NCBI GenBank assembly: GCA_038850735.1
Contig: JAWCLO010000008.1
Location: forward strand, 10,899 to 74,898
Reading direction: 5' to 3'
Source of the DNA: Methanomassiliicoccales archaeon
GTDB lineage: Archaea; Thermoplasmatota; Thermoplasmata; Methanomassiliicoccales; JACIVX01
DNA length: 64,000 nucleotides
Of this stretch, positions 24,091 through 63,542 are shown piece by piece. The notes below the pieces were generated by a model. That model had not been told where the DNA came from. It was given only the letters and a program-made list of their open reading frames with translations, and ran no database searches. Position 1 is the first letter of the stretch. Every line of letters starts with the position of its first letter. Made by a program: the position numbers and the translations under genes.

Positions 24091-24395
24091 CTTGCACCCC
24101 CTAACACGGGGAAGATTAAAAATCCTTCGTATAATGCAATCCTGAGAAATAAGATACAAGTTCATCCCTAAAGGGTAATAAAACGATTGAAGTGTGACAT
24201 TAACGATGATAGAATGCAAATGATGTATGCTGAATGCCGATTCATATTCATGACAGAATTATTCGTAAATTACTAGTAATAAAGCTTTTTTGATATAACT
24301 GGTCCTTAGTGCACCATTATGATATACCCACTTTCATTCATCTCCCGCAGTATATCTTATAAAGGTGGGTGAGATTAGTTTTAGTAGGTGCATCA

Positions 24396-25862
24396 ATGCC
24401 CGAGAAGAAATTAGAGGAGTTGCCGGGTGTTGGCCCTGCAACAGCTGAAAAACTCCGTGACGCAGGATATACAGATCTCATGAGCATAGCTGTGGAATCT
24501 CCGAAAACTCTCGCTGAAATAGCGGAAATCGGGGAGAGCACAGCAGCAAAGATCATTGCCGCAGCTAAGCAGGCCGCGGACATCGGAGGTTTTGAGACAG
24601 GTGATCAAATCCTTGAGAGAAGAAAAAACATCCACAAGCTGACTTCATGTTCAAAAGCCCTTGATGATCTTATGGGCGGAGGTTTTGAAACACAGTCAAT
24701 AGTCGAATTCTATGGGGAGTTTGGCAGTGGCAAATGCGTTTCCGCTGACACACCAGTTATTTATGAACTTGACGGTTCTCCTGAAATCGCATCAATCGAG
24801 GATCTGTTTGCTCGTCGTGAAGAAGAATCTGGCAAAATTAACAACGAGGGTGGCGGCGAAATTGTGAGCGCCGACGATTTCAGAGTTTTGGGTCTCGTCG
24901 ACGGAATGATAATTCCCGTTGAGGCTTCTTATTTATACAGGGAAAAAGCCAGCGAGCTAATCGAGATCAAAACCCTTCGCGGACGAGATATAGCCCTGAG
25001 CGCGATTCATAAACTTCCCGTGGAAATAAATGGAGAGGTAACCTGGATTTGTGCCGGAAAAATCTTGCCTGGACAGAAGATTCGAGTGATTGATTCGCCG
25101 TACAAAGATCTTTTGGAGAATTTTAATAAACCCCATAAAATCTCATCCGATACGGTCACATCCGTTAATAGAATTCCTTATGATGACTACATTTATGACT
25201 TCGTCGTTCCAAATGGCCATTCTTTTGTTGGCGGATCTATTCCAATGATTCTTCATAACACACAACTTTGTTTTCAGCTCGCGGTGAATGCAACGATGCC
25301 CGTCGACAGAGGAGGTCTTGAGGGAGAGGTCATCCTGATCGACACAGAGAATACTTTTAGGCCAGAAAGAATTGTCCAGATGGCAACAGCACTTGATCTT
25401 GATCCTATAGAGACTTTGCAGAAGATCCATGTGGCAAGGGCATATAATTCGCATCATCAGATGCTACTCGTAGACAAGGCTTCCGAACTTGCACGTGAGC
25501 GACCGATCAGACTTATGATCGTTGATTCATTAACGGCACATTTCAGAGCGGAGTATATCGGACGTGGTGCACTTGCTGAAAGGCAACAATCACTCAATAA
25601 ACATATGCATGACCTCATGAGATTCGCCGACGTAAACAACGCAGTTATCGCGGTGACAAATCAGGTGGCAGCAAAACCAGATGCATTTTTTGGCGATCCG
25701 ACAAGGCCCATTGGCGGTCACATTGTCGGGCATACTGCTACATTTAGAATCTACCTCAGGAAGAGCAAGGGTGGGAAAAGAATCGCGAGGTTGATCGATT
25801 CTCCGAATCTGCCGGAGGCAGAGGTGGTGATCTCAATCTCAGGAGAAGGCGTTCGTGACTGA
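24396..25862 (+). CDS. radA: DNA repair/recombination protein RadA, interrupted by an in-frame intein
   Basis: HhH N-domain ([15 protein letters not shown]). Walker A is split as GEFGSGK|C...HN|TQL. Walker B LMIVDS. Without the insert the protein is a normal RadA length. Confidence 0.95.
24735..25259 (+). mobile_element. Mini-intein (175 aa) inserted in the RadA P-loop
   Basis: Starts with Cys (CVSADTPV) straight after GSGK. Ends in HN followed by Thr (+1) of the TQL extein. Internal SAIH block-B-like motif. Confidence 0.85.
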
Positions 25863-33350: not shown

Positions 33351-33656
33351 ATGGTATTGACTCCGCATATGAGGCAACTCGGTGTTACTCCAGATCTCTT
33401 GAAGACAACAAAGAGGGTAACTTGTCCTCGGTGTGGTCGTGAATTCAGCCTCTTTCAATCCAGAGCTATCGCCTGTAGAGGGTGCAGAAGGGCAGCGACG
33501 ACGTGCGAGCTGGCACGATGCCCATTTTGTGATTTCGAATTTCCACTGCAACAGCTCATTGTTTCGAATCAGCAAAGGCAGCGAGAAATCTCAGCCTACA
33601 TGAACAAAATCGTTAGTGATTATCATCATAGCGTTGGAAAGAAAACCTCGCGTTAA
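33351..33656 (+). CDS. Small cysteine-rich zinc-ribbon protein (hypothetical)
   Basis: CPRCG, CRGC and CPFC knuckles. It converges on, and overlaps by 4 nt, the radical SAM gene. Confidence 0.35.
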   Translation: MVLTPHMRQLGVTPDLLKTTKRVTCPRCGREFSLFQSRAIACRGCRRAATTCELARCPFCDFEFPLQQLIVSNQQRQREISAYMNKIVSDYHHSVGKKTSR

Positions 33657-35020
33657 CCTTTTCCATATTTTGAGAATATCTCATGCCGATAGAGCGTCTT
33701 TCCCGTGATGCTGTTTATGTTGAAAAGACAGAAGGGGATCAACCGACCATCCGGCGTGACCGTGTGGATACAACAATTTTTCAATCGCTCCGTTTCGACA
33801 TTCCATACATCCTGAAATGGCATCGTTGAGACTGTGAGATAGTGAGTTTTCGCACGCTGAATGAAACCCATCCATGTACCATCAAGATCTTCTTCGCTGC
33901 TGCTGGCCAAGGAATCTTCGATGTATCGCCATAAATCACATATTTCCTGCCTCGTTTTTCTTGCAATTTCGCTCGTTTCTCTTGGAGGGCCGAGTGCTCT
34001 TTGAGTTAATGGGAAGAGTGTACCATCCTCAAGCAGTACAGACATCGACTTTGCGTCGCAGTGAACATTCGCGCAGGATGTTGGAATGAAGTTGTCGGCT
34101 CTCAACTCCCCCTTCGTTTGTTCCTCTATTGCCCTCAATAAGTCCGGCAAAACAACATGGTCTTCTTCGCCGGGAGCTGAGGGATACCTTCCAAAATAAC
34201 TAAGAGGTTGGAAATGCACACCCTTTACAGTGGGTATCCATTTCTTTGCAAATTGAATCACATCGCCGATCTGATGAAAATTAATATCGCGCGATACAAC
34301 TGTTACAAGAGTAACTCCCATTCCCACTTCTTTGCAATTCTCGAGCGCTTTAACTTTTGTGACAAGAAGGTCCCTGCCACAGGTTTTCACAAACACGTCG
34401 CCGGTCACTCCATCGAATGAGAAATAAAGCGAATCAACCCCTGCCTCTTTTATAGCTCGAAGATAACTGATGTCTTCCGCAAGACGTATACCATTCGTAT
34501 TGATCTCTATGTAATCCACTCCCATTTTCTTACCAATCTTGACAATCTCAGGTAAATCGTCTCTAATAGTAGGTTCTCCCCCACTTATTTGGACTGCAAT
34601 AGGATGTTTCACATACTCTATAATGTATCTGAACATTTTCTCTATTTCATCCAGCGATGGATGAAAGCGATAACGCTCGTTTGCACTGGCAAAGCATATT
34701 GGACACCTGAGATTGCACCCATTGGTAACCTCGAGAACCACTAAACAGGTATGCTGAACATGATCAGGACATAATCCGCACACCTCTGGACACATGCCTT
34801 TGTTTTGAATCGCAATTCTCTCTGGTTTTGATTTAACGCATGAGTAACGTTCCAGATCTTTGTAATCAGTTACGCCACGCCAAATGAGAACTTTGTATGT
34901 CCCATGCTCTGGACAAGTCTTCACAAGATACACCTTATCAGACTCTGCAATTTTTTCAGCTGGAATTGTTTTCAGACATACTGGGCAAAGGCTTTCTGTT
35001 TTCCCGATGAGCTCACTCAT
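33653..35020 (-). CDS. Radical SAM protein with an N-terminal zinc-ribbon/rubredoxin-like knuckle (Tes / MJ0619-like family, tentative)
   Basis: CNLRCPIC (CxxxCxxC) radical SAM motif. N-terminal CPVC...CPEHG. 455 aa. Confidence 0.6.
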   Translation of the reverse strand: MSELIGKTESLCPVCLKTIPAEKIAESDKVYLVKTCPEHGTYKVLIWRGVTDYKDLERYSCVKSKPERIAIQNKGMCPEVCGLCPDHVQHTCLVVLEVTNGCNLRCPICFASANERYRFHPSLDEIEKMFRYIIEYVKHPIAVQISGGEPTIRDDLPEIVKIGKKMGVDYIEINTNGIRLAEDISYLRAIKEAGVDSLYFSFDGVTGDVFVKTCGRDLLVTKVKALENCKEVGMGVTLVTVVSRDINFHQIGDVIQFAKKWIPTVKGVHFQPLSYFGRYPSAPGEEDHVVLPDLLRAIEEQTKGELRADNFIPTSCANVHCDAKSMSVLLEDGTLFPLTQRALGPPRETSEIARKTRQEICDLWRYIEDSLASSSEEDLDGTWMGFIQRAKTHYLTVSTMPFQDVWNVETERLKNCCIHTVTPDGRLIPFCLFNINSITGKTLYRHEIFSKYGKG

Positions 35021-35212
35021 ATATACACCGACGGAGGTGCTGTATGGTATAGTTGAATTTCTAATTTTCCAATAAAGAAATTATACTCTATCGATTACGT
35101 AAGATGAAGAACACAAGTATCCGAGATGCATCTAAAATACAATGAAAGATTTACGGACCTTAGATTTCTTTATATGAAAATAGGAGAGGCCGCATACGCG
35201 GCCAAAAAAAAC

Positions 35213-35671
35213 TTAGGCGCGTTTCTTCTCGAAGAGACCCTCAACAGCTGCAAGGGTTTTTGTTGCCAAATACTCTTCAACCCAAGAATCATTGCACTTA
35301 GGACAGACTACGGCGGGACCGTTTCTCGTCACCTGCATATAGGTCATTTCTACATGGCCATACATCGCAGGAGCATTGCAGTGAGCACATACCCAGTCAC
35401 TCTTATCGGTTGCGTTCACGATCTTGCCCAAGGCAAGTCTGTGAGAGTAAGCCGACTTAACAGTTGCATGCTTTCTGATGAGTCCCTTTTCTAGATCATA
35501 ATCCACGTAGATTGTAGCTTCGCCTATTCTTTTCTTTGCAATGTTTCGACCGTTCGCGACTATTTTCTTGTTTGAAGACTCCGCCGTCTCAATGACATCC
35601 TTTACGTCGGCCTCTTTTATACCTCTCTTTGCAATCAATTCCATGACTTCATTTGGTATTGTGATTTCCAT
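35213..35671 (-). CDS. Hypothetical zinc-ribbon protein coupled to the MtaA-like methyltransferase
   Basis: Start at MEITIPN, preceded by GGTGAGGTGA. C-terminal CAHC...CPKC. I recognise no family. Confidence 0.55.
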   Translation of the reverse strand: MEITIPNEVMELIAKRGIKEADVKDVIETAESSNKKIVANGRNIAKKRIGEATIYVDYDLEKGLIRKHATVKSAYSHRLALGKIVNATDKSDWVCAHCNAPAMYGHVEMTYMQVTRNGPAVVCPKCNDSWVEEYLATKTLAAVEGLFEKKRA

Positions 35672-35681
35672 TTCTCTCACC

Positions 35682-36875
35682 TCACCATGTCCCATAAGTA
35701 CCATAGTCCCTGGCCGCTTTAACCAGAGCTAGGAGATTACCGGGAATCGTATACGGCGGCGTCTCACAAGAAGTACCGAGAATGTAGCCCTTCGGGCTAT
35801 CACGACCTGCAAGTATCTGCGCCTTAGCTTGCTCATAGACTACCTTTGGATTGGGATTGATCATGAGCTTGGTATCAACCGATCCCATAATTGTTGTGCG
35901 GTTTCCAAATTCCTCTTTCAGCAGTTGTGACGGGAACGGCTCTTTTCCATAGTACCCTATATGCAGCACATTGAATGGAGACCAGAATAGCGTATCTTTG
36001 AACACCTTGTAATCTGTTTGATGGTTACCGCAGAAGTGATAGAACAGTTGTGGTCCAGCTCCGCCTCTGAATGCTTTGTCGACATAGTACTTCATATAAT
36101 TCGCTGAGTACTCTTTCACTGCTTCATCTGAGAATATATCGTTGTTAGCGAGTACAGACCCTACAATCAGCATGGCCATCCCAAATTCCTGGGCTAACCC
36201 TATCGCACCGTTTACCGAAGTGTCCGTGTACTTCTTAACTAATTTGTGCGCTGCTTCTGGCTCCGTAAATGTCCACATAATAAAGTTTTCTACACCGCAA
36301 AGCTCAGCAGCTGCCCCTACCAAATCAAACCCGTAAGATATAGGTACGAGCGTCATTGGAAGATTCTTCTGCACATATTTGTAAATTCTGATGAACTCAG
36401 GTAGTGTATAACCCTTCTTAAGTTCATCTACGTCTGGCACATGTATACTGTCCACCTGTCCCGGTTCTGAGATAATGGGTCCCGTTGAAACTGGCGGTAG
36501 TGTTTCTTTGTATTCAAGCTTCAATCCCAGTTCACGCACCCACGGCAACGAATAGAACCAGTGCGTCACAGGCAAGAGGTCGTATAAATGCGAAATATAC
36601 CCGACGCAGTGAATTCCTAGTTCTGGCTTCTCGTAAAAGTCCCTGATTGTAAACCCGCATGCCACCGCTGCATGCGATAGTATGATCGGGTCTACGTCAA
36701 TTCTGTCGTGTGGTACGTCAACGAACGGGGAAGCAAATCTCTTCGTGGCATTTGCATGCCATTTCATATCCATTCCTGGAAATAGATCTTCGTAGCCCAT
36801 TGAATACCCCCTGAAAAGATTAGTGCCTTCACGATATTTAAGGATTACTTTATCCGTGATGAAACATTTTTTCAA
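35682..36875 (-). CDS. Uroporphyrinogen-decarboxylase-fold (MtaA/CmuA-like) zinc methyltransferase
   Basis: URO-D-like length (397 aa). HFCGN (H-x-C) and a late GTSCE Cys fit the MtaA-type zinc site. Confidence 0.65.
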   Translation of the reverse strand: MKKCFITDKVILKYREGTNLFRGYSMGYEDLFPGMDMKWHANATKRFASPFVDVPHDRIDVDPIILSHAAVACGFTIRDFYEKPELGIHCVGYISHLYDLLPVTHWFYSLPWVRELGLKLEYKETLPPVSTGPIISEPGQVDSIHVPDVDELKKGYTLPEFIRIYKYVQKNLPMTLVPISYGFDLVGAAAELCGVENFIMWTFTEPEAAHKLVKKYTDTSVNGAIGLAQEFGMAMLIVGSVLANNDIFSDEAVKEYSANYMKYYVDKAFRGGAGPQLFYHFCGNHQTDYKVFKDTLFWSPFNVLHIGYYGKEPFPSQLLKEEFGNRTTIMGSVDTKLMINPNPKVVYEQAKAQILAGRDSPKGYILGTSCETPPYTIPGNLLALVKAARDYGTYGTW

Positions 36876-46730: not shown

Positions 46731-47540
46731 ATGGCATTGAAAATTGCGGTTTCTGGCAAGGGGGGAGTGGGTAAGACCACGGTAGCGGGAATATTGGCGA
46801 GACTTTACGGAAGAGAAGGTAAGGAGGTATTGGTTTTGGATGCGGATCCGGCGTCGAACCTTGCCAGTGTCGTAGGCGTGGATAAAGAGGTGCAAAAGAA
46901 AATAACGCCACTCTCTCAGATGCTTGATCTTATAGAAGAAAGAACAGGCGTACGACCTGGTTCAAGTTATGGTGGCGTTTTTTCTATTAATCCAAAGGTG
47001 GATGACATTGCATCCAGGTATGCCGTTGAAGGAAAAGATGGGGTACGACTTCTTGTTCTAGGAACTATAAGCACAGGCGGTAGCGGATGTTTTTGCCCTG
47101 AAAGTGCGCTGTTGAAAAATCTAGTAAGATACCTCGTCTTGGAAAGAAATCAGTATCTTATTATGGACATGGAGGCAGGATTGGAACATCTCGGCAGGGC
47201 AAGTTCGAAAAATATGGATGTCATGCTTGTGGTGGTCGAACCGGGAATGAGATCGGTAGAAACAGCTGGAAGGATCAAAACGCTGGCATCTCAAATTGGA
47301 ATAAAAAGAATGATGGCAGTTTTGAACAAAATTTCATCTGAAACGGAAAAGCAAAAACTACAGCAGGAAATGGAAAATCTTGAACTCTCTGTAGCTACGA
47401 CTATTCCATTTAATAGAATGTTAATCGAAGCTGATCTTATGGGCGTATCGCCACTTGATATAAAAGGGACGGACGATGTTGCGATCGCCGTAAGAAAACT
47501 CAAAAAGATATTGGACGAGGTAGAAGCTACTTCCCAGTGA
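46731..47540 (+). CDS. cooC: CooC-type nickel-insertion ATPase (copy 1)
   Basis: Deviant Walker A GKGGVGKTT and the CxC metal motif GCFCPE. 269 aa. Confidence 0.85.
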   Translation: MALKIAVSGKGGVGKTTVAGILARLYGREGKEVLVLDADPASNLASVVGVDKEVQKKITPLSQMLDLIEERTGVRPGSSYGGVFSINPKVDDIASRYAVEGKDGVRLLVLGTISTGGSGCFCPESALLKNLVRYLVLERNQYLIMDMEAGLEHLGRASSKNMDVMLVVVEPGMRSVETAGRIKTLASQIGIKRMMAVLNKISSETEKQKLQQEMENLELSVATTIPFNRMLIEADLMGVSPLDIKGTDDVAIAVRKLKKILDEVEATSQ

Positions 47541-53012: not shown

Positions 53013-56000
53013 ATGGAATCAAATGTGAGAACCTGCCCAACAAAAACGTACGACACGACTGCGCAACAGATAATATCCATCGCATCTGAAGTGAAAATTG
53101 AAACGATTTGGGATCGCTACGAAACACAGCTACCCCAGTGTGGCTTTGGAGAATTGGGTATATGCTGTCGCAACTGCTTACAAGGACCGTGTAGAATCGA
53201 TCCATTTGGGGGAGAGCCGAACAAAGGGATTTGTGGAGCAAGAGATTATACCATTGTCGCGAGAAACATTATTAGAAACATTGCAGGCGGTGCTGCCGCG
53301 CATTCCGGTCACGGGAGACACATAGCGGAAACGATGCTGAAAGCGCTTGAGGGGAAGGCGCCAGCCTATAGAATAAAGGATCACGATAAGCTTAGACGTG
53401 TGGCTAGGAGACTTGGCCTTGACGCCGATACGCCTGATGTAAATGGGCTGGCGAAAAGAGTCGTAATTGAAGCGTTAGAAGATTATTCAAGATATGAGAG
53501 AAAACCACTTACGTTTACGACAACAACCATCACTAAAGCCAGGACGAAACTATTCGAAGAAAAAGGTGTCATGCCCGATAACATTGACCATGCCATTTCA
53601 GACGTAATGCATCGCACCACGCTTGGTTGCGATGCCGATCCTGTGCCGATACTCTTTGGCGGCATAAAATGTGCGATAGCTGACTACAATGGTATGCAGA
53701 TATCAACAGATTTATCTGACATACTTTTTGGGACGCCGAGATTAGTTCGCACATACGCTAACCTTGGAGCATTGAAACCGGATGCTGTAAACATCGCAGT
53801 ACACGGACACAACCCAGTGCTGAGTGATATTATTGTTGACATTGCAAGGGAAATGGAGAATGAGGCGAGAGCGGCCGGCGCAACTGGCATAAATATTGTC
53901 GGTATATGTTGCACGGGAAATGAAACTCTGATGAGAAAAGGAGTTGCAATGGCTTCGAATTTTGCATCGCAGGAGCTTGTGCTGGCAACAGGTGTCGTCG
54001 ACCTTATGGTAGTTGACTATCAATGCGTCATGCCATCCGTGGCAGAGATTTGTTCGTGCCTGCACACCGAGATGATCACGACAATGCCTAATGTCCATAT
54101 ACCTTACGCAACTCATGTTCAATTCCGAGAAGAGGACGCTGAAAAGAGCGCAAAAACGATTATTCAGATGGCAATCGAAGCATTTAAGAAGAGGGATAAA
54201 ACAAAAGCTCATGTTCCAGAGGTCAAATTTGAAGTGATTGCGGGATTCAGTCTCGAGCAAATTGAAGAGTTATGCGCTAAATTCTATCCTGATGATCCAC
54301 TGATGTATATTGTCGAGAGTATTAGGAGTGGAATTATCAGAGGCATAGCTCTTATGGCTGGATGCAATAACCAGAAGGCTATACAAGATTACAACCATAT
54401 TACAATCGCAAAGACCCTAATCAAGAACAATGTGCTTGTTCTTGCAACTGGATGCTCCGCCGGCGCTTTCGCTAAGCAGGGACTTCTCTCATCCGAGGCT
54501 ACAGAGAAGTATGCTGGTGAAGGTCTGAGAAAATTCCTTAAGGAACTTGGCGAAAAGAATGGCGTGCAATTGCCCCCTATATGGCACATGGGTTCGTGTG
54601 TTGACAACACTAGATCTGCGAATTTCGCTACAGCACTAGCTGAGAGGTTTGGCGTAGATGTTCACCAGATTCCATTTGTTGCAAGTGCACCAGAAGCCAA
54701 TCACGAGAAAGCTGTCTCGATAGGAACTTGGGCAGTGGCCCTTGGTCTTCCAGTACACGTCGGAACCATAAATTACATTTATGGATCCTCTCTCGTCACG
54801 GAAGTCCTAGAAAACACAGCTAGAGATGTGTACGGGGGTTACTTTATCTTTGAAAGAGATCCGTTCAAGGCCGCTAAGAAACTTCTTAATACAATCGAAT
54901 ATAGGCGATGGATACTTGATCTCGATCACAATTATGTTGTTGAGAGCGGGAACCCCATAAGCCAGAAGAGACTTTATGAAATGGCCATAGAGGGTGCGAT
55001 TATTGCAACAGGATACGCAGACCAGCTCCTTAGCGTTGCAATCGAGAAGTATGGATACGATCAGAAAATAGAATATCCTGACACGGGATATGAGTTGCCA
55101 TCTATTTACGCTTGGGATGGAAGAGAGGTCAAGAAGTTGGGTGATATCCCACCAATTCTTGGAAAAGTTCGAAGCAAGATCAGAGAGGAGCCAACATTAG
55201 AAAACGCGCTGATTGCTGGTGAGGCTACAATGATTGCAGCCGAGATCGTTGAGGCCTTGAAATATATAGACACTGATAAGCCATACGAAGGAACACTCTA
55301 TTGTGGCTTCGTGCCCGACAGGACGTTAAGGGAATTGGGTATCGCATTCGTAGATGATACCATTCCTGGTTGTGCCGTGCTCGTCGGATGTGCAAAGGAT
55401 TCGAAAGAGCTTGCTAAGATCGTAAGAGATTGCCAAAGTAAGGGGATGTTGATCATTGCAACTTTTGATACTATAAGACAGTTGAAAGACGAGAACATTA
55501 AGATGGGGCTCGACCGAATGCTATACCCAGTGGGAGAGTTTACCCAAGCGATACACGGACTTAATTTTGCCATAAGGGCAGCGCTTTCGTTTGGTGGAAT
55601 AAAAAGAGGAGACAGGGAAAATCTTTACAAATATTTGTCAAAGAGACCAAAGGTCTTCGTTCTGCAAATGGGGCCAATTGACCACATCAAGGCAGCTGCA
55701 GAATTTGCGGTGCTATTTAATGGATCGCCAACAATCACAGATCAAGAAATAGAACAAATCCCGGACAAATATGTTGTCCAGAAAGACTACAACAAGATGA
55801 TCCAGACAGCAATTGAAATTAGAGGAATTAAGGTAAAGCTTGCACCTGTGAACATTCCGGTTGCCTATGGGCCAGCCTTTGAAGGCGAAACCGTAAGACG
55901 GCCAGATACATACATCGAAGCTGGTGGCGCAGCGAAGACACTTGCCTTTGAATTGCTGAAAATGCGCAATGAAGACGAAGTTGAAGATGGCAAAATTACA

Positions 56001-57089
56001 GTTATTGGAAAAGATGTTGATGAGATGGAGGAAGGGGGCAAAACACCTCTTGCAATCATTGTTGAGGTCTACGGTAAGAAGATGCAAGAGGATTTCGAGG
56101 CCGTGCTCGAGAGGCGAATACATCAGTTCATTAACTTTGCTGAAGGAGCGTGGCATACGGGACAGAGAAATATCCTTTGGATCCGATTGAGCAAGAGTGC
56201 AGTTAAGGCGGGTCTAAGATTCAAACACTTTGGGGATATTCTTATTACAAAGATGAAGGAAGAATTCGGTAGCATCATAAGTCGCGTACAAGTGACGATA
56301 ATCACAGATGAGCAAGAAATTAGAAAACGACTTCCAGAGGCCCTCGAAACTTATGCAAAGAGAGATGCGAGAATGGCAGGACTTACTGACGAAACCGTTG
56401 ATACCTTCTACAGTTGCACGCTATGCCAATCTTTTGCACCGGATCATGTATGTGTAATTACACCTGAGCGACTTGGTCTCTGCGGTGCAATAAACTGGCT
56501 CGATGCCAAAGCAAGTAATGAAATAGCTCCGACTGGACCAAATCAGCCGATTCCCAAGGGTCAAACGATTGATTCCGTCAAAGGTTCATGGGTTGGTGTA
56601 AATAGTGCGGTATTTGAATTTAGTCATCACAAGATTGAAAGATTCAACGCGTACACGATGATGGAAGACCCGATGACCAGCTGCGGATGCTTCGAATGTA
56701 TAGTTGCAATGACTGCTGATATGCAAGCAGTTATTGTGGTGAACAGAGAATACCCAGGCATGACGCCCATCGGAATGAAGTTTTCTACGTTAGCAGGGTC
56801 CGTTGGCGGAGGTAAGCAGACGCCAGGATTTATCGGAGTGGGCAGAAAATACCTAGTGAGTAAGAAGTTTATTTCTGCAGATGGGGGGTTCTTTAGAATA
56901 GCATGGATGCCAAAAGATCTGAAAGAGGCAATGAGAGACGATCTCAAGAGAAGAAGCGAAGAACTTGGAATGCCAGATTTTGTAGAAAAAATCGCTGACG
57001 AGACTGTTTGCACTGACGCTGAGGGACTGATGGAATGGATGGTTAAGGTAGATCACCCAGCATTGAAGATGCCACCATTGTTGCAATAA
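53013..57089 (+). CDS. acsAB: Fused Ni-CO dehydrogenase (CooS/AcsA-like, aa 1 to about 635) and bacterial-type acetyl-CoA synthase (AcsB-like, aa about 650-1358)
   Basis: CODH half: B/D-cluster Cys (CGFGELGICCRNCLQGPC, GICGA) and C-cluster ligand contexts (VHGHNP, GICCTG, DYQCVM, MAGCNN, ATGCSAG, MGSCVDN). ACS half: YPDTGYELP, CQSFAPDHVC, PERLGLCG, SCGCFE. One uninterrupted ORF. Confidence 0.85.
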   Translation: MESNVRTCPTKTYDTTAQQIISIASEVKIETIWDRYETQLPQCGFGELGICCRNCLQGPCRIDPFGGEPNKGICGARDYTIVARNIIRNIAGGAAAHSGHGRHIAETMLKALEGKAPAYRIKDHDKLRRVARRLGLDADTPDVNGLAKRVVIEALEDYSRYERKPLTFTTTTITKARTKLFEEKGVMPDNIDHAISDVMHRTTLGCDADPVPILFGGIKCAIADYNGMQISTDLSDILFGTPRLVRTYANLGALKPDAVNIAVHGHNPVLSDIIVDIAREMENEARAAGATGINIVGICCTGNETLMRKGVAMASNFASQELVLATGVVDLMVVDYQCVMPSVAEICSCLHTEMITTMPNVHIPYATHVQFREEDAEKSAKTIIQMAIEAFKKRDKTKAHVPEVKFEVIAGFSLEQIEELCAKFYPDDPLMYIVESIRSGIIRGIALMAGCNNQKAIQDYNHITIAKTLIKNNVLVLATGCSAGAFAKQGLLSSEATEKYAGEGLRKFLKELGEKNGVQLPPIWHMGSCVDNTRSANFATALAERFGVDVHQIPFVASAPEANHEKAVSIGTWAVALGLPVHVGTINYIYGSSLVTEVLENTARDVYGGYFIFERDPFKAAKKLLNTIEYRRWILDLDHNYVVESGNPISQKRLYEMAIEGAIIATGYADQLLSVAIEKYGYDQKIEYPDTGYELPSIYAWDGREVKKLGDIPPILGKVRSKIREEPTLENALIAGEATMIAAEIVEALKYIDTDKPYEGTLYCGFVPDRTLRELGIAFVDDTIPGCAVLVGCAKDSKELAKIVRDCQSKGMLIIATFDTIRQLKDENIKMGLDRMLYPVGEFTQAIHGLNFAIRAALSFGGIKRGDRENLYKYLSKRPKVFVLQMGPIDHIKAAAEFAVLFNGSPTITDQEIEQIPDKYVVQKDYNKMIQTAIEIRGIKVKLAPVNIPVAYGPAFEGETVRRPDTYIEAGGAAKTLAFELLKMRNEDEVEDGKITVIGKDVDEMEEGGKTPLAIIVEVYGKKMQEDFEAVLERRIHQFINFAEGAWHTGQRNILWIRLSKSAVKAGLRFKHFGDILITKMKEEFGSIISRVQVTIITDEQEIRKRLPEALETYAKRDARMAGLTDETVDTFYSCTLCQSFAPDHVCVITPERLGLCGAINWLDAKASNEIAPTGPNQPIPKGQTIDSVKGSWVGVNSAVFEFSHHKIERFNAYTMMEDPMTSCGCFECIVAMTADMQAVIVVNREYPGMTPIGMKFSTLAGSVGGGKQTPGFIGVGRKYLVSKKFISADGGFFRIAWMPKDLKEAMRDDLKRRSEELGMPDFVEKIADETVCTDAEGLMEWMVKVDHPALKMPPLLQ

Positions 57090-57104: not shown

Positions 57105-58061
57105 ATGGTTGAAGTACCAATTCCAAAGGAAAAATGGACTGGAAAAATTGGAACTACTGTGATAGGGGCTGTAGCAGAAGAGGGGGGCACGAGGGCAAAG
57201 AAAGTGGTTATCGGGGGGCAATCCTGCATGCCTTTTCTCTCCTTTGAGGCGCCGATCCTTAATAGACCAGCAATTGCTGGTGAGGTTGTCGACACATTAA
57301 GAGACTACCCACCACTGGCAAGAAAAGCATTTGGCGATGTAGTCGAAGACCCAGTTCAATGGGCAAAAGCCTGGGTTGAGAAATACGGAGTTGATCTAAT
57401 CTGCCTGAAACTCTATTCGACAAATCCTGAAGAAGAAAACAAGTCTCCACAGGAGGCAGCTGATCTCGTCCGAAAGATCTTAGCCGCAGTGCCTGTACCC
57501 CTCGTTGTATATGGATGTGGGCACGAAGAGAAGGATGCAAAGGTTATGGAAGCAGTTAGTAACGCTGGTTCCAAAGAAAGACTTCTGCTCGGCCATGCAG
57601 AAGAGAGTGCATACAAGTCGATAGCTGCTGCATCCATGGCGAACAACCACGCATTGATAGCGTTCTCCAATCTAGATATCAACCTTGCCAAGCAAATAAA
57701 CATACTCCTTACAGACTTTGGCGTCAGGAAAGAGAACATTGTAGCAGATCCACTAATGGCTAGTTTAGGAATGGGGCTTGAATATTCATATTCCGTGAAC
57801 GAGCGTATAAGGCTGGCAGCTTTGATGGGGGACAGCATGCTTCAAGTGCCGATGGTCTGCGATACTACAATCGCTTGGAAGGCAAGGGAAGCGACGGAAG
57901 AGAACGAGTCACTCGGGGATATAGAGGTGAGGGCTGCGTGGTGGGAAGCAACAACTGGTCTCGCTGCACTAATATCAGGTGCAGATATGCTTATTATGAG
58001 AAGTCCAAAGGCTGTCCAGATCATTAAGAAAGCGATCAACGAGCTATTAGGAGGTGCATAA
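57105..58061 (+). CDS. acsD: Corrinoid iron-sulfur protein small subunit (AcsD-type)
   Basis: 318 aa, TIM-barrel-type CFeSP small subunit. The N-terminus (IPKEKWTGKI ... VIGG) resembles AcsD. AGGAGG RBS. Confidence 0.8.
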   Translation: MVEVPIPKEKWTGKIGTTVIGAVAEEGGTRAKKVVIGGQSCMPFLSFEAPILNRPAIAGEVVDTLRDYPPLARKAFGDVVEDPVQWAKAWVEKYGVDLICLKLYSTNPEEENKSPQEAADLVRKILAAVPVPLVVYGCGHEEKDAKVMEAVSNAGSKERLLLGHAEESAYKSIAAASMANNHALIAFSNLDINLAKQINILLTDFGVRKENIVADPLMASLGMGLEYSYSVNERIRLAALMGDSMLQVPMVCDTTIAWKAREATEENESLGDIEVRAAWWEATTGLAALISGADMLIMRSPKAVQIIKKAINELLGGA

Positions 58062-58062
58062 A

Positions 58063-59391
58063 ATGCCCACAGCAATGGAAATATTCAAACTCCTGCCAAA
58101 AAAGAATTGCGGCGAATGCAAATTCCCGACATGCCTAGCATTTGCCATGCAGCTTGCAAACCAGAAGGCGAAATTAGAAGACTGTCCGTATGTTTCCGAG
58201 CAAGCGAAGGCGACACTCGCTGCATCTGCTGCTCCACCGATTAGATTGGTAAAGGTGGGTACGGGAGCAAATGCAATCGAAATTGGAGACGAAACAGAAA
58301 TGTACAGGCACGAAAAGAAGTTCTTTCACCCTACTGCCTACGCTTTCATCATTTCAGATACATCGAATGACAGTGAAGTAAAAGCTAGAGTTGAAAAGGC
58401 TCATTCTCTTAAATTTGAGAGGGTAGGCCAATTGATGAAAATGGATATGATCGGGGTACGTTGCGACTCAGGAGACCTCAAAAGGTTCACTAAGGTAGTG
58501 AGCGATGTCGCAGCACTCACAGAACTTCCGCTCGTTCTCATTTGCAACGATCCTGTCAAAATGAAAGCAGCTGCCTCTAACATTGCAGCGAAGGTGCCAT
58601 TATTACATTGCGCAACGTCGTCGAATGCTACTGAAATGGCTGCCGTGGCCAAGGAGTTGAAATGTCCTTTAGTTGTCTACGAGGACAGGGGACTCAACGA
58701 GTTAGCCGATTTGGTTGCAAAGGTAAAAGCAGCTGGCGTTGAAGATATCGTACTTGATTTTGGAGCGAGGAACTTAAAAGAATTGCTTGAAAGAAGCACA
58801 ATTATCAGAAAGATCTCTGTTAAGAAGATCTTTAGGGGTCTGGGTTATCCAATCTATGTGCATGCAGGTTCAGGTGAGGAGGCGGTTCTGCGAGGGCTCA
58901 TATCTACGATGAAATATGGGAGCGTCGTCGCATTCGACGATATTGATCCAGCAACAGCTCTTCCGCTATATGTCCTAAGGCAGAACATTTACACAGATCC
59001 TCAGGTGCCGATTCAGGTCAAACCAGATCTTTACGCAATAAACAATCCCAATGAGAAATCTCCTCTTCTCTTCACGACAAACTTTTCCCTAACCTATTTC
59101 ACTGTCTTGGCAGATATTGAGAAGAGCAAGATACCAGTGTGGCTGCAAGTCATCGATACAGAAGGGCTATCGGTGATGACTGCGTTTGCGGCTGGTAAAC
59201 TAACACCTGAGATGGTTGCGAAGGCAATTGATGCATCTGGAGCAAAGGAGAAATCAAGGCGCGGTGAAATCATCATACCGGGAATGGTAGCAAGAATGAG
59301 CAGCAAACTCCAAGAACTTACTGGTCTAAAGGTCATTGTTGGTCCAAAGGAATCAAGCGGCTTGCCAAAACTTCTAAAATCTCTGGATTGA
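58063..59391 (+). CDS. acsC: Corrinoid iron-sulfur protein large subunit (AcsC-type)
   Basis: N-terminal [4Fe-4S] motif CGECKFPTCLAF ... CPY. About 442 aa. ATG lies 1 nt after the acsD stop, with a GGAGGTG RBS. Confidence 0.85.
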   Translation: MPTAMEIFKLLPKKNCGECKFPTCLAFAMQLANQKAKLEDCPYVSEQAKATLAASAAPPIRLVKVGTGANAIEIGDETEMYRHEKKFFHPTAYAFIISDTSNDSEVKARVEKAHSLKFERVGQLMKMDMIGVRCDSGDLKRFTKVVSDVAALTELPLVLICNDPVKMKAAASNIAAKVPLLHCATSSNATEMAAVAKELKCPLVVYEDRGLNELADLVAKVKAAGVEDIVLDFGARNLKELLERSTIIRKISVKKIFRGLGYPIYVHAGSGEEAVLRGLISTMKYGSVVAFDDIDPATALPLYVLRQNIYTDPQVPIQVKPDLYAINNPNEKSPLLFTTNFSLTYFTVLADIEKSKIPVWLQVIDTEGLSVMTAFAAGKLTPEMVAKAIDASGAKEKSRRGEIIIPGMVARMSSKLQELTGLKVIVGPKESSGLPKLLKSLD

Positions 59392-59519: not shown

Positions 59520-60272
59520 TCATTTCAAATCCTTGGCAATCTCCATCACGGCCCTGAACGCACGATTTGTTTTTTCGATGTGAATTAAAGGTTCTCCGTT
59601 CACAGCCATTTCTTCAATTCTTTTGTCATGAGGAACTTTTCTCACCTCAGAAAACTCGCTGGCTATTGCCATTTCTTGAATGATAGGAGGAAGTTCGTGC
59701 GGACATCTATTTATGATGAGCATGCTTGACTTCACATCAATGTTCATATTCATCGCAAGCTTTCTTATCCGGATTGCAGTTTCTATCCCTAATTTCGTCG
59801 GATCAGACACAACGATAAGCTTATCCATTTTCCTGGTCGTCCGCCGAGAGAGGTGTTCCATTCCCGCTTCATTATCAATCACTATGTAAGCATAATCATC
59901 CATCAACTCGTCGAGAAAAGTTCGCAAAACATTGTTGATGTAGCAATAACAGCCTGGTCCTTCGGATCTGCCCATAGTAATGAGATCGAACCGATCCCCT
60001 TCTACCATGGCGAGTTGTATTTGATACCTCACATATTCATGCTTGCTTGTACTAGATGAGATCTGCTCAGCATTTTTAATGAGGTCTTCCCGAAGATCAC
60101 CGATGGTCTTCTCCACCCTCACACCAAGCTTGTCTCCAAGATTGGAATTTGGGTCCGCATCAACTGCTAACACCACGTCACCAGATTTCTCGGCAAGTGC
60201 TTTGATCAAAAGTGCCGCGATTGTTGATTTGCCGACTCCTCCTTTTCCAGCTATTGCTGCCGTGTAAGCCAT
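59520..60272 (-). CDS. cooC: CooC/AcsF-type nickel-insertion ATPase (copy 2)
   Basis: GKGGVGKST and the CxC motif GCYCYIN. 250 aa. Confidence 0.85.
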   Translation of the reverse strand: MAYTAAIAGKGGVGKSTIAALLIKALAEKSGDVVLAVDADPNSNLGDKLGVRVEKTIGDLREDLIKNAEQISSSTSKHEYVRYQIQLAMVEGDRFDLITMGRSEGPGCYCYINNVLRTFLDELMDDYAYIVIDNEAGMEHLSRRTTRKMDKLIVVSDPTKLGIETAIRIRKLAMNMNIDVKSSMLIINRCPHELPPIIQEMAIASEFSEVRKVPHDKRIEEMAVNGEPLIHIEKTNRAFRAVMEIAKDLK

Positions 60273-61306
60273 GCATCATCTCCCAGGTAAAATCTTTCTT
60301 TAAGTCTTCGTGAAAGACTCAAGAGAATCTCTATGGCACTTTCTGCATTTTCTTCAGACATCCCACCAAGTCCGCATTGAGGTGTCAGCAAAGAATTCCT
60401 AATCAATAATTCTTGATCAACACCTTTTGATACTAATTTTCTTATCAATGAGAGCATTTTCTCTTCGAGCGATCCTATAGTCACACTGGAAATCGATTCA
60501 TCGTTATTCGGCACTATTCCCCATGCAAGTACACCACCTCGATCGAGAAACCGCGAAATTTCTTCTGGAAATAGTGTTACCGTGTGCCCGAATTCATATG
60601 CATCAAAGGATAGAATGTCTATGCTAGCATTGACAACTTGAGACCAATCAGTATTGCCACAACAATGGATGCCTTTCACACAATCTATGCCATTAAAGAC
60701 ATCATTAATCCAATCTATAGCATCTTCCCACCTAATGCTTGCATATGGTGTGCCAAGAAGAGCTAGTGAAGGTTCGTCAAGAAATATGATGACCTCTTTG
60801 TATTTTGACCTTAGCACTCTTACTTGCCACTTTGTCATCATATTGAGATTCTTCCTAATGATCTCGCAATAGCTCTCATCATAGATAACGGGCCGATTCC
60901 TCGTATCGAATATCTGAAGACCTTCACTGATCGGGCCCGTTGTCTGCCCTTTTACAATTTTACCCAGATTCCTCGGTTCGCGGCTGATCATTTCGAAGAA
61001 CCCAGTAAATCTATCATTCGAAAAACAAAAATAATCTAAATCATGACTGATCACTTTTTCGTAAAATGTAGCGGGATCATAATTATCAAGATCGACCATT
61101 ATTCTTTTTCTATCTACATCAATAGAAACGCCAGGCAGATGCATTGCATATTGAACATACATATTTTCCAAGAATCCTTTTTTTGGAAGCTGTGGCCAGA
61201 ATGGGATAAGCTCTTTCTTACTTAGAACAAGATCGAGGGCCTTAACTTGATCCTGATGCGGCAATGAACCTATACATGTTGCCGAAAAATTCCAAGTCAC
61301 ATTCAT
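60251..61306 (-). CDS. MetE-C-terminal-like (core-MetE type) zinc methyltransferase
   Basis: 351 aa. IHCCGN (His/Cys) and TPQCGLG match the MetE-type zinc site (HxC ... CGL). 22-nt overlap with cooC. Confidence 0.55.
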   Translation of the reverse strand: MNVTWNFSATCIGSLPHQDQVKALDLVLSKKELIPFWPQLPKKGFLENMYVQYAMHLPGVSIDVDRKRIMVDLDNYDPATFYEKVISHDLDYFCFSNDRFTGFFEMISREPRNLGKIVKGQTTGPISEGLQIFDTRNRPVIYDESYCEIIRKNLNMMTKWQVRVLRSKYKEVIIFLDEPSLALLGTPYASIRWEDAIDWINDVFNGIDCVKGIHCCGNTDWSQVVNASIDILSFDAYEFGHTVTLFPEEISRFLDRGGVLAWGIVPNNDESISSVTIGSLEEKMLSLIRKLVSKGVDQELLIRNSLLTPQCGLGGMSEENAESAIEILLSLSRRLKERFYLGDDAWLTRQQ

Positions 61307-61449
61307 AGAAATTTAGACTTTATATAATAAGTCTTTCATGAAACTGATTTCAATCCGCTCCAGAAATATTCGTTAGGTGTCGTGTAAATTCGACAGTTGT
61401 CTAGCACTAATTATATATAATGACGAATAGACTAATTTGCCTGGTTGTT

Positions 61450-61596
61450 ATGGTTAGATGTCCTTTCTGCGGCGCGAAAATCGAAATCATAAGCGATCAG
61501 ATTATATGTGAATGCGGTGAGCAGCTCCCGCGAGACATCCATAAGTTCGAAAGAGAACGATGCTTATGTGGTAAAACCATAGGCTTTCCCGATTAG
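61450..61596 (+). CDS. Small zinc-ribbon ORF (48 aa, hypothetical)
   Basis: Hand translation MVRCPFCGAKIEIISDQIICECGEQ...CLCGK. It is below the ORF-track cutoff and converges on the RACo stop. Confidence 0.25.
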   Translation: MVRCPFCGAKIEIISDQIICECGEQLPRDIHKFERERCLCGKTIGFPD

Positions 61597-63542
61597 ACTT
61601 TCCTAAGTAGCTCGGCAACCCTTGGGAATTTACCAATATCTGTGTGGGGAAGGAAGATTGCAGAAGAAAACTCGTCGAAAAATGCCTGGATTGTGCTCAA
61701 CTCCAGATATGTCATCATTTCGTAGACCGCCTTTGCCTCCTTTCTCTTTTCTTCAGAAATAAGTGTTAAATGCGCCCCTGCAAGAGCGCCATTACCCAAG
61801 AAAACGAAACGCTCTGCTTGAAGATCTGGCAGCAATCCAATCGTAATTGCTCTTTCCATATCTATGAAGTTGCCAAATCCGCCAGCTATGTATATCTTTG
61901 ATACATCATTAAAATCCATATTGGCTTTTTTTAGTAGCACGCTACATGCTGCGTAAATGGCTGCCTTCGTTCTAATTATATTTGCTATATCGTCATCACT
62001 GATAACTATATCCCGGCCCTTTTCCTCTTCCACTATCAATTTGCGTTCTTCGTCAAACCTTCTTATTTTGTCTCTACCTATTGAAGTCTCTTCCTTCCAC
62101 GCGACCACAAATTCCATACCGCTTTCGCTCATTCTTACACGGGGAGTACTTACTTGCTGAATACGCCCCTTTTTATCTATGATTCCTCTCAAAAACATTT
62201 CTGCGACGAGGTCGATAAGACCAGAACCGCAGATGCCTCTTGGCTTCACACCACCTATGGTTGAGTACTTTACCTCATAATCATTGAGAATTCGGATTCT
62301 CTCAATTGCACCAGTCATAGCTCTCATGCCAAATCTGACTTCTCCGCCTTCGAATGCCGGTCCAGCCGAGCAGGAACACGCCATCAACCACTCGTTATTT
62401 CCTAGTACAACTTCTCCATTTGTTCCAACATCAATCAACAATGCGATTTCTGACTTTAGATGCATCCCCGAGGCTAGGACATCAGCAATGATATCTCCGC
62501 CGACATAGCTCGCCCTTCCTGGGACGCAGTACACCGGAGCGTCTTCATTTATGTTTATTCCAAGGTCACTGGCACGATATACAGGAGGAGCGTTGACGGT
62601 TGGAATATATGGGTCATAGCGAATATATTTCGGATTTAATCCAAGAAAAAGGTGAATCATTGTCGTATTGCCGGCTACGGACATACAAGAAATCTCATCG
62701 ACACAAATCGATTCGCCGATTTTTCCGCAATTCTCGGGGTTCCCACACAATTCTGAAATAAGGTAATTTATCGTTTCGAGGACGAGATTATTTAGCCTCT
62801 CTAATCCACCCTCTTCTGCATATGATATTCGGGATAATACATCCTCTCCGCACATAATCTGCTTGTTGTAGCTTGACGCTTGGCGAATGATTTCGCCATT
62901 GAAGAGATCTATAATACTTGCAACGACGGTCGTTGTTCCTATATCTACAGCCACTCCAAAATTTCTATGAGTTTTATCTCCTTCTCTAACATCTATGAGA
63001 ACTTTCGAATCTTTACTTTCATCCAGCACAGCAGTTATTCTCCAATCACTATCCCTTAATACCCTAGCCAAAATCCTTAGCACCCGAAGCGTTGCCTTGA
63101 GAGACTTATCGGAAGACAAAAGATGACGAGCAATTCGTTCCAGATCACCGATATTGTCGTCCAGACTTGGCGGCTTCAACTTAAGGTATCTAGTCGAGGT
63201 CAATGGGGAGAGTCTGCCCAGCTTCTCAATGGTATATGACATAAGTATTTGATGTTGTGCAATCTTAATTTCCTCCGGGACAAACACTTCAAGATTCCCT
63301 TGAACACGAGTCTGGCAAGCGAGACGATATCCTGCTAGCCATTCATCATCCGAAAAAAATTCTTTTCCTTTTTCCATCTCATGGAGACCTTGCACTATCA
63401 CCTTGCATTTTCCACAGGTTCCTTTTCCGCCACATATGCTATTGAGTATTACGCCTCCTCGAAAGGCTCCTTCTAGTATTTTTTCGCCTTCGTTAACTTC
63501 CACCGTAATGTCCTGCGGAAGAAACCTTATCTTGTGTGACAT
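61593..63542 (-). CDS. Reductive activator of corrinoid Fe-S protein (RACo; [2Fe-2S] ferredoxin plus ASKHA ATPase)
   Basis: N-terminal plant-type ferredoxin motif CGGKGTCGKCKV ... LACQT. Large actin-fold ATPase region (DIGTTT, DVGTNGE). 649 aa. Confidence 0.8.
   Translation of the reverse strand: MSHKIRFLPQDITVEVNEGEKILEGAFRGGVILNSICGGKGTCGKCKVIVQGLHEMEKGKEFFSDDEWLAGYRLACQTRVQGNLEVFVPEEIKIAQHQILMSYTIEKLGRLSPLTSTRYLKLKPPSLDDNIGDLERIARHLLSSDKSLKATLRVLRILARVLRDSDWRITAVLDESKDSKVLIDVREGDKTHRNFGVAVDIGTTTVVASIIDLFNGEIIRQASSYNKQIMCGEDVLSRISYAEEGGLERLNNLVLETINYLISELCGNPENCGKIGESICVDEISCMSVAGNTTMIHLFLGLNPKYIRYDPYIPTVNAPPVYRASDLGININEDAPVYCVPGRASYVGGDIIADVLASGMHLKSEIALLIDVGTNGEVVLGNNEWLMACSCSAGPAFEGGEVRFGMRAMTGAIERIRILNDYEVKYSTIGGVKPRGICGSGLIDLVAEMFLRGIIDKKGRIQQVSTPRVRMSESGMEFVVAWKEETSIGRDKIRRFDEERKLIVEEEKGRDIVISDDDIANIIRTKAAIYAACSVLLKKANMDFNDVSKIYIAGGFGNFIDMERAITIGLLPDLQAERFVFLGNGALAGAHLTLISEEKRKEAKAVYEMMTYLELSTIQAFFDEFSSAIFLPHTDIGKFPRVAELLRKV

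Follow-up and report, generated by a model that had tools for sequence, protein, structure and literature searches.

A MesB-family core methionine synthase encoded in an acetyl-CoA synthase gene cluster of a Methanomassiliicoccales archaeon, with the corrinoid iron–sulfur protein as its probable methyl donor

Four families of folate-independent 'core' methionine synthases have been described, one of which, MesB, has the Dehalococcoides mccartyi protein DET0516/cbdbA481 as its type member (Price et al., 2021; PMC7857596). The D. mccartyi enzyme, also known as core-MetE, uses methylcobalamin, but not methyl-tetrahydrofolate (methyl-THF), to methylate homocysteine (Deobald et al., 2020; PMC7005905). 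Transfer of the methyl group to homocysteine from the corrinoid iron–sulfur protein (CFeSP), whose subunits are AcsC and AcsD, has already been proposed (Deobald et al., 2020, PMC7005905; Price et al., 2021, PMC7857596). In addition, clustering of mesB with acsCD has been reported for some methanogens, the Methanomassiliicoccales have MesB only, and the MesB-containing reference proteomes all encode AcsC or AcsD (PMC7857596). We analysed a 64,000-nucleotide stretch from a Methanomassiliicoccales archaeon (contig JAWCLO010000008.1, positions 10,899 to 74,898; hereafter the window, with positions counted from its first nucleotide), in which an open reading frame (ORF) at 60251..61306 on the minus strand lies in the acs cluster. 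Its product belongs to the MesB family of core methionine synthases and consists of one MetE-type (beta/alpha)8 barrel without the folate-binding domain, and we consider it probable that this enzyme receives its methyl group from the CFeSP corrinoid.

The ORF, which we call mesB, starts with ATG and encodes 351 amino acids. The motifs IHCCGN and TPQCGLG occupy residues 213–218 and 308–314, the 3′ end of the gene overlaps the start of cooC by 22 nucleotides (60251–60272), and the gene for RACo lies upstream on the same strand; in all of these features, the ORF listing, the coordinates and the Pfam and NCBIfam matches agree with the original prediction, which had been made from the sequence without database searches. 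We regard mesB as a real gene because its product has 5,496 homologues in the database at E ≤ 0.001, one of them 99% identical, and because an alignment of 29 homologues contains 54 invariant columns. The named top matches come from Methanomassiliicoccales or Euryarchaeota and are 48–66% identical.

For membership of the MesB family, the published line is 130 bits or more in a phmmer comparison with D. mccartyi MesB, which corresponds to about 29% identity or more (PMC7857596). Our reference for this comparison was a gene found by scanning a metagenome collection with the primer A481_fw (Deobald et al., 2020, supplement). It is a 343-amino-acid ORF, the same length as reported for cbdbA481, on the minus strand of a 465-kb contig (locus L083, 3352–4380); it matches A481_fw at 20 of 20 nucleotides and, at its 3′ end, A481_rev at 19 of 20, and it carries S15 and W69, in agreement with the description by Price and colleagues. 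Being placed by its primers, it stands here as a D. mccartyi-type orthologue and not as a sequence established to be residue-identical to CAI82680 or Q3Z939. The other primer match in the metagenomes (L082) was a chance match inside an unrelated membrane protein and was discarded. Against the reference, the mesB product scored 243.9 bits (phmmer, E 1e-76), with 36% identity over 320 amino acids (BLASTP). Neighbour-joining analysis of 82 sequences groups all the homologues, archaeal and bacterial alike, with D. mccartyi MesB in a single clade. A long branch separates this clade from E. coli MetE, and the window protein falls inside a Methanomassiliicoccales subclade. AcsC and AcsD are both encoded by this organism, in the same cluster as mesB itself.

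The predicted structure points to a MetE-type fold. An AlphaFold2 model built from the 29-sequence alignment is a single domain of alternating strands and helices, with a mean predicted local distance difference test score (pLDDT) of 91.8 and a predicted template modelling score (pTM) of 0.90. When this model was compared with the Protein Data Bank (PDB) by Foldseek, the top 26 matches were all cobalamin-independent methionine synthases of the MetE and MesD types, the best being Thermotoga maritima MetE (1xdj; E 4e-10, template modelling (TM) score 0.60), with MesD (3rpd) at E 3e-8. The TM-scores of 0.58–0.60 are relative to the mesB product; relative to full-length MetE they are about 0.3. 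The methyltransferase structure 4ay7, of the MtaA type, and uroporphyrinogen decarboxylase (URO-D) structures appeared only from rank 27 downwards, with E-values some 10^4 worse than that of MetE, and a structure of the dihydropteroate synthase (DHPS) type, 5u0v, was found at rank 50 (E 6e-3, TM-score 0.24).

We then added the C-terminal barrel of E. coli MetE to the family alignment (MAFFT --add) and followed the collinearity of the motifs. The mesB product aligns to E. coli MetE residues 420–753 only, with 22% identity in the barrel. All four zinc ligands of E. coli MetE have counterparts, H641 in H214, C643 in C216, E665 in D235 and C726 in C311, and two of its homocysteine-binding residues, S433 and D599, correspond to S14 and D177; the third, E484, corresponds to Y76 and is not conserved. 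D177, H214, C215, C216, D235 and C311 are invariant among the 29 homologues, and S14 is present in at least 90% of them. We therefore have, from sequence comparison, a predicted zinc site (H214, C216, D235, C311) and two predicted homocysteine contacts (S14, D177). The hallmarks given for MesB are precisely the replacement of Glu665 by Asp, the retention of residues equivalent to Ser433 and Asp599 and a lack of conservation around Glu484, and even the published numbering of these residues in D. mccartyi MesB (214, 216, 235 and 311; 177) coincides with that in the mesB product (PMC7857596). The MetE-type barrel, the alignment of the zinc ligands with those of MetE and the kinship with core-MetE that the original prediction put forward have all held, and the unrelated URO-D subfamily that it named as a possible refutation is ruled against by the ranking of the URO-D structures below MetE and by the lack of any PF01208 match.

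Standard domain libraries fail to recognize the protein. Pfam gave no family for the mesB product even at E ≤ 10, PF01208 included; the canonical MetE model TIGR01371 did not match; and the best NCBIfam result was 23.3 bits (E 3e-5) to the MesA-type model NF002119 (PRK00957), whose cut-off is 258. Because the D. mccartyi-type enzyme from L083 fails likewise, with no Pfam match and 39 bits to NF002119, under the same cut-off, we take this failure to be a property of the MesB family and not of this one protein, and many family members are deposited as 'hypothetical protein'. The sole relevant sequence match in the PDB was MesD 3rpd at E 0.22. Designed pentatricopeptide-repeat proteins also came up when the PDB was searched with phmmer or profiles, their whole-sequence E-values reaching 5e-16; we rejected them as artefacts because about 10 repeats, each matching weakly (i-Evalue > 10), all fall on residues 275–318 and have their scores summed. 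This segment (window 60353–60484), a helix-loop around the Cys311 motif, is a hazard for automated annotation.

Comparison with the described enzymes places these results in context. The window protein shares with D. mccartyi MesB a single barrel of about 345 amino acids, the zinc ligand set with Asp in the place of MetE Glu665, the Ser and Asp contacts, the absence of a Glu484 equivalent and the poor showing against Pfam and NF002119, and both organisms encode AcsB, AcsC and AcsD. The two differ in their hosts, that of the window being archaeal (Thermoplasmata/Methanomassiliicoccales-like), and in that D. mccartyi is without carbon monoxide dehydrogenase (CODH), whereas in the window cluster the CODH AcsA is fused to AcsB. 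They differ also in gene context: the window gene lies in a RACo–mesB–cooC arrangement beside acsCD. The original prediction had described the D. mccartyi enzyme as using methylcobalamin and not methyl-folate, which agrees with the published assay, and as being encoded next to acs genes, which does not agree with the published operon, where its neighbours are the genes for S-adenosylmethionine (SAM) synthetase (metK) and S-adenosylhomocysteine (SAH) hydrolase (ahcY) (PMC7005905), as they are in L083. MesB of Methanomassiliicoccales was catalogued by Price et al. (2021); the homologues that we found in Methanomassiliicoccales genome loci are 44–55% identical to the window protein over the full length, form the clade into which it falls and have the same RACo–mesB–cooC and acsBDC neighbourhood. 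Apart from one 99% identical fragment, the nearest database relatives of the window protein are 65% identical to it, so that it represents a somewhat divergent lineage.

With canonical MetE (E. coli b3829; T. maritima 1xdj), the window protein has in common the C-terminal barrel, the HxC…E/D…C zinc site and the 'IGSxP' and 'DEP' motifs. It lacks the N-terminal barrel, the folate-binding elements and any match to Pfam Meth_synt_1/2, and its expected donor is a corrinoid, whereas that of MetE is methyl-THF; at 351 amino acids, and with no Pfam or TIGR01371 match, it is not a two-barrel enzyme of about 750 amino acids with PF01717 and PF08267. MesA (NF002119/PRK00957) and MesD (3rpd) are likewise single-barrel, folate-independent enzymes with the same zinc motif. 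Identity as MesA is rejected by the score of 23.3 bits against a cut-off of 258, and MesD is a clear match in fold but reaches only E 0.22 as a sequence profile. MesA has been proposed to use MtrA, and MesD requires MesX and O2. Two other assignments were also rejected: the URO-D or MtaA–MtbA family (PF01208) gave no Pfam match and its structures rank 27 and lower, and AcsE/MeTr (PF00809, DHPS-like) gave no Pfam match and is represented by 5u0v at rank 50.

The neighbours of mesB are genes of the acs cluster. Immediately downstream on the minus strand (59520..60272) lies a gene for a 250-amino-acid P-loop ATPase of the CooC/AcsF type, a nickel-insertion accessory for CODH and acetyl-CoA synthase (ACS), whose N-terminus reads MAYTAAIAGKGGVGKS and whose Pfam matches (AAA_31, CbiA, ParA) are a set typical for such maturation ATPases. 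The overlap of 22 nucleotides between this gene and mesB suggests translational coupling, by which the two may be co-translated. Upstream, also on the minus strand (61593..63542), is the gene for RACo/AcsV, the ATP-dependent reductive activator of CFeSP, with 649 amino acids (Pfam RACo_C_ter, Raco_middle, RACo_linker and Fer2; NCBIfam AcsV, 636 bits). Beyond cooC, and divergent to the mesB strand, three genes lie on the plus strand: acsC/cdhE (58054..59391; Pfam CdhD and FeS; NCBIfam PRK04165, 544.6 bits, above cut-off), for the large CFeSP subunit that binds the corrinoid and the iron–sulfur cluster and is the presumed methyl donor; acsD/cdhD (57105..58061; Pfam CdhD; NCBIfam PRK04452.1-2, 362 bits, above cut-off), for the small subunit; and a single 1358-amino-acid ORF (53013..57089) in which a CooS-type CODH (AcsA) is fused to a bacterial-type AcsB, the enzyme that methylates and demethylates CFeSP (Pfam Prismane, residues 50–617, CODH_A_N, CdhC and ACS_CODH_B_C; NCBIfam CO_DH_cata, 702 bits, and CODH_ACS_al_bet, 991 bits). 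Among ORFs of at least 150 amino acids, neither acsE, metF, metH nor a two-domain metE was found in the 64-kb window, and neither the cluster nor the window contains a mesA, mesC-like or pterin-binding gene of that size.

We surveyed the neighbourhood of mesB homologues by scanning one genome per species, which gave 597 relatives, keeping the best 80 loci (28 archaeal and 52 bacterial) and detecting acs genes by tblastn with the window's own Acs proteins. An acs-cluster gene (RACo, cooC, acsB, acsC or acsD) lies beside the homologue in all 28 Thermoplasmata/Methanomassiliicoccales loci, most of them on contigs that are short or truncated. In those with sufficient flanking sequence, the arrangement is mostly that of the window, with RACo upstream, cooC directly downstream at a gap of about 10–30 nucleotides or overlapping, and a divergent acsC–acsD–acsB group. 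Linkage to acs genes was found in 9 of the 52 bacterial loci, with acs structural genes beside the homologue in seven; most archaeal loci and seven bacterial ones have RACo upstream of the homologue, and in acs-linked bacterial loci, too, cooC lies directly downstream. Six of the bacterial loci (L042, L051, L064, L070, L072 and L078), from metagenome-assembled genomes of Deferrimicrobiaceae, Deltaproteobacteria and an unclassified bacterium, have the genes colinear on one strand in the order acsB–acsD–acsC–RACo–mesB (for example L042:3940-11745), and cooC follows mesB in five of them, the sixth (L078) ending about 200 nucleotides past mesB. The co-conservation with acs genes that the original prediction made a test of its proposal is seen across the archaea and in some bacteria. 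That the bacterial and archaeal clusters comprise the same gene set in different layouts suggests that the cassette may have been inherited or transferred as a unit.

A second context appears in the Chloroflexota. None of the Chloroflexota/Dehalococcoidia loci within the best 80 shows acs linkage; in 23 of these loci, and in L083, ahcY and/or metK, called by signature motifs only (GYGWCG for the former; GHPDK/GAGDQG for the latter), lie downstream on the same strand within a few kilobases (among them L025, L032-L034, L039, L040, L043, L044, L053, L057, L060, L061, L066, L075, L077 and L079). One orthologous family is therefore tied either to CFeSP and RACo or to the SAM cycle, according to lineage, and this is the pattern expected for an enzyme that carries methyl groups from CFeSP into methionine.

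The mechanism that we propose draws on established MetE chemistry, on the published MesB assay and on inference. Zinc held by H214, C216, D235 and C311 would bind homocysteine and activate its thiolate, while S14 and D177 would hold the carboxylate and amino groups of the substrate. A methyl-Co(III) corrinoid would then donate its methyl group to the thiolate as a cation, yielding methionine and Co(I). By analogy with the 36%-identical D. mccartyi orthologue, the enzyme would be expected to have methylcobalamin:homocysteine activity without the use of methyl-THF. The likeliest corrinoid donor would be the AcsC/AcsD CFeSP, encoded about 860 nucleotides from mesB, which would receive its methyl group from the fused CODH/ACS when acetyl-CoA is cleaved, or from the methyl branch when acetyl-CoA is made; RACo, encoded just upstream, would re-reduce the corrinoid whenever it is oxidized to Co(II). 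MesB would in this way form a branch point at which methyl groups leave the acetyl-CoA pathway directly for methionine and SAM, without passing through a methyl-pterin.

Several points weigh against this explanation. An identity of 36% to the characterized enzyme means that the specificity could differ. The sequence-profile links to MetE are weak, with no Pfam match, 23 bits to NF002119 and, when the family profile was compared by hhalign with the single E. coli MetE sequence, an alignment of the central block only (including the D177/D599 block) at 20% probability, and for this reason the relationship to MetE rests on the predicted fold and the motif-anchored alignment. No assay of transfer from CFeSP to MesB, and no follow-up study, was found in the searchable literature, and the authors of the D. 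mccartyi study allow for an unidentified intermediary (PMC7005905). The window covers 64 kb of the genome, so that further methionine synthases, AcsE or corrinoid proteins of the MtaC type may be encoded elsewhere, and such corrinoid proteins could act as donors; and linkage to acs genes could reflect shared regulation and not direct methyl transfer from protein to protein. With these points taken into account, CFeSP is still the most likely physiological donor.

The alternative that survives best, which we nevertheless judge unlikely, is that MesB is a core methionine synthase fed by some other methyl-corrinoid protein (of the MtaC, MtmC or MtbC type) or by a free methyl-cobamide, its linkage to acs genes reflecting shared regulation or a common need for RACo. 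The characterized orthologue does use free methylcobalamin in vitro (PMC7005905), and Price and colleagues speculate that some MesB/MesC paralogues use different corrinoid proteins (PMC7857596); moreover, the relatives of this organism within the order are methyl-reducing methanogens rich in corrinoid proteins, and the Chloroflexota orthologues have no acs linkage. Against this, mesB lies between RACo and cooC, beside acsC and acsD, in essentially every archaeal locus, and recurs in a colinear acsBDC–RACo–mesB–cooC operon in distant bacteria, a tightness of linkage that another donor leaves unexplained. No MtaBC-like pair of methyltransferase and corrinoid protein was found in the 64-kb window, and the occurrence of AcsC or AcsD in all MesB-containing reference proteomes (PMC7857596) also counts against it.

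We consider it very improbable that the protein works in the opposite direction as a substitute for AcsE, loading Co(I) CFeSP from a methyl-thioether or other donor and so feeding acetyl-CoA synthesis, as the original prediction had offered for its second option. Such a role would account for the lack of acsE or any pterin-binding gene in the cluster and window, acetyl-CoA synthesis should be possible with a full CODH–ACS fusion, and zinc methyltransferases of the MtsA type do catalyse reversible transfer from thioethers to corrinoids. D177 and S14, which would contact the alpha-amino and alpha-carboxyl groups of an amino acid, are nevertheless invariant or nearly so, the bacterial orthologues are linked to ahcY–metK and hence to the SAM cycle, and the fold resembles that of MetE, whereas AcsE has a DHPS-like pterin barrel. 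In addition, thermodynamics disfavour transfer of the methyl group of methionine to Co(I), as is established for MetH and MetE. The characterized orthologue, moreover, produces methionine (PMC7005905).

We give hardly any credence to a zinc methylcobamide:thiol methyltransferase acting on a thiol other than homocysteine, in the manner of MtaA or MtbA on coenzyme M (CoM), which would join CFeSP to methanogenic or other thiol-based methyl metabolism: 4ay7 and URO-D are significant if lower-ranked fold matches, the E484-equivalent contact is not conserved and CoM is used by the methanogens to which the organism is related, but the E-values of MetE and MesD are better than that of MtaA by a factor of about 10^4, PF01208 is not matched at E ≤ 10, the protein scores 244 bits to the D. 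mccartyi-type orthologue of a proven homocysteine methyltransferase which has itself lost E484 (PMC7857596), and the same acs-linked gene occurs in non-methanogenic bacteria without CoM.

Some further features of the locus and the window deserve mention. The covalent CODH–ACS fusion is unusual; the same fusion, 1357 amino acids long, is encoded on the minus strand at L014:16893-20966 in Methanomassiliicoccales archaeon PtaU1.Bin124, the single other case among the archaeal loci, and it is therefore not an artefact of assembly. In most Methanomassiliicoccales loci (L003-L022, L052), acsD and acsC adjoin a gene for a bacterial-type AcsB of full length (for example L009:16861-18975 and L013:5562-7664), with no match to AcsA/CODH beyond AcsB in the adjacent 2 kb or more, the rest of these genomes being unchecked; such neighbourhoods recall the CODH-less ACS of Dehalococcoides. 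Between RACo and mesB, the gap of 286 nucleotides is filled on the opposite strand by a 58-amino-acid Cys-rich ORF (61420–61596, plus strand) with a zinc-ribbon-like CPFC…CEC…CLC pattern and a TTATATATAA element just upstream. A conserved counterpart was looked for in the related loci and none was found, and this ORF may not be a gene. A scan for sigma-70 promoters and terminators gave counts at or below the shuffle expectation, a bacterial-type scan being uninformative for an archaeon, and the A/T-rich TTATTATATAA 14–24 nucleotides upstream of the mesB ATG was rejected as a TATA box because its spacing is atypical for archaea.

The remainder of the window is archaeal in its gene content, which includes genes for aIF2-alpha, an archaeal CCA-adding enzyme, GGGP and DGGGP synthases and a RadA/Rad51 recombinase (24369–25862, plus strand) with an intein inside it (Pfam Intein_splicing, residues 141–297). 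A 397-amino-acid protein of the URO-D family (PF01208, E 5e-29) is encoded within 33653–36875 on the minus strand, and is possibly an MtaA-like methyltransferase or a true decarboxylase; beside it are genes for a DUF7479 protein and for a radical-SAM enzyme that carries the HMPTM zinc-ribbon domain, and these genes may form a cluster related to pterin or methanopterin or to methyl transfer. A second P-loop ATPase of the CbiA/ParA type (269 amino acids; 46731–47540, plus strand), which resembles CooC/AcsF, is encoded about 5.5 kb from the acs cluster and adjoins an enoyl-CoA hydratase gene.

The mesB gene of the window is a new example of a published idea and not a new kind of enzyme. Earlier papers had described the family and its missing folate domain, predicted CFeSP as the donor, and reported both MesB as the only methionine synthase of Methanomassiliicoccales and the clustering of mesB with acsC and acsD in some methanogens. 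The idea of the CFeSP donor has been in print since 2020–2021, and the locus confirms and extends it. To this we add a direct membership test for this protein, the conservation of the RACo–mesB–cooC arrangement throughout the Methanomassiliicoccales-like archaea with its recurrence as a colinear operon in unrelated bacteria, and the failure of domain libraries to detect the family. Together with acsBCD, this arrangement in two domains provides unusually tight genomic support for CFeSP as the donor, and AcsC, AcsD, RACo and MesB make up a compact gene set suited to in vitro work on the published hypothesis.

A stronger proposition, which we regard as doubtful, is that in this lineage, lacking AcsE and any pterin methyltransferase, MesB would be the sole enzyme to draw methyl groups off CFeSP, and that the whole bacterial-type cassette (acsA/B–acsD–acsC with RACo–mesB–cooC) would serve mainly as a self-contained shunt from the methyl group of acetyl-CoA to methionine, and not in carbon fixation or energy conservation, a role akin to that proposed for Dehalococcoides. 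If true, it would explain why ACS has been retained, often without an adjacent CODH, in genome-reduced, methyl-reducing Methanomassiliicoccales, and why a colinear cassette is found in unrelated bacteria, which suggests movement as a unit. For the family as a whole, core methionine synthases enable anaerobes to produce methionine without methyl-folate; as MesB genes are often left 'hypothetical', methionine synthesis seems to be absent from genomes that encode it.

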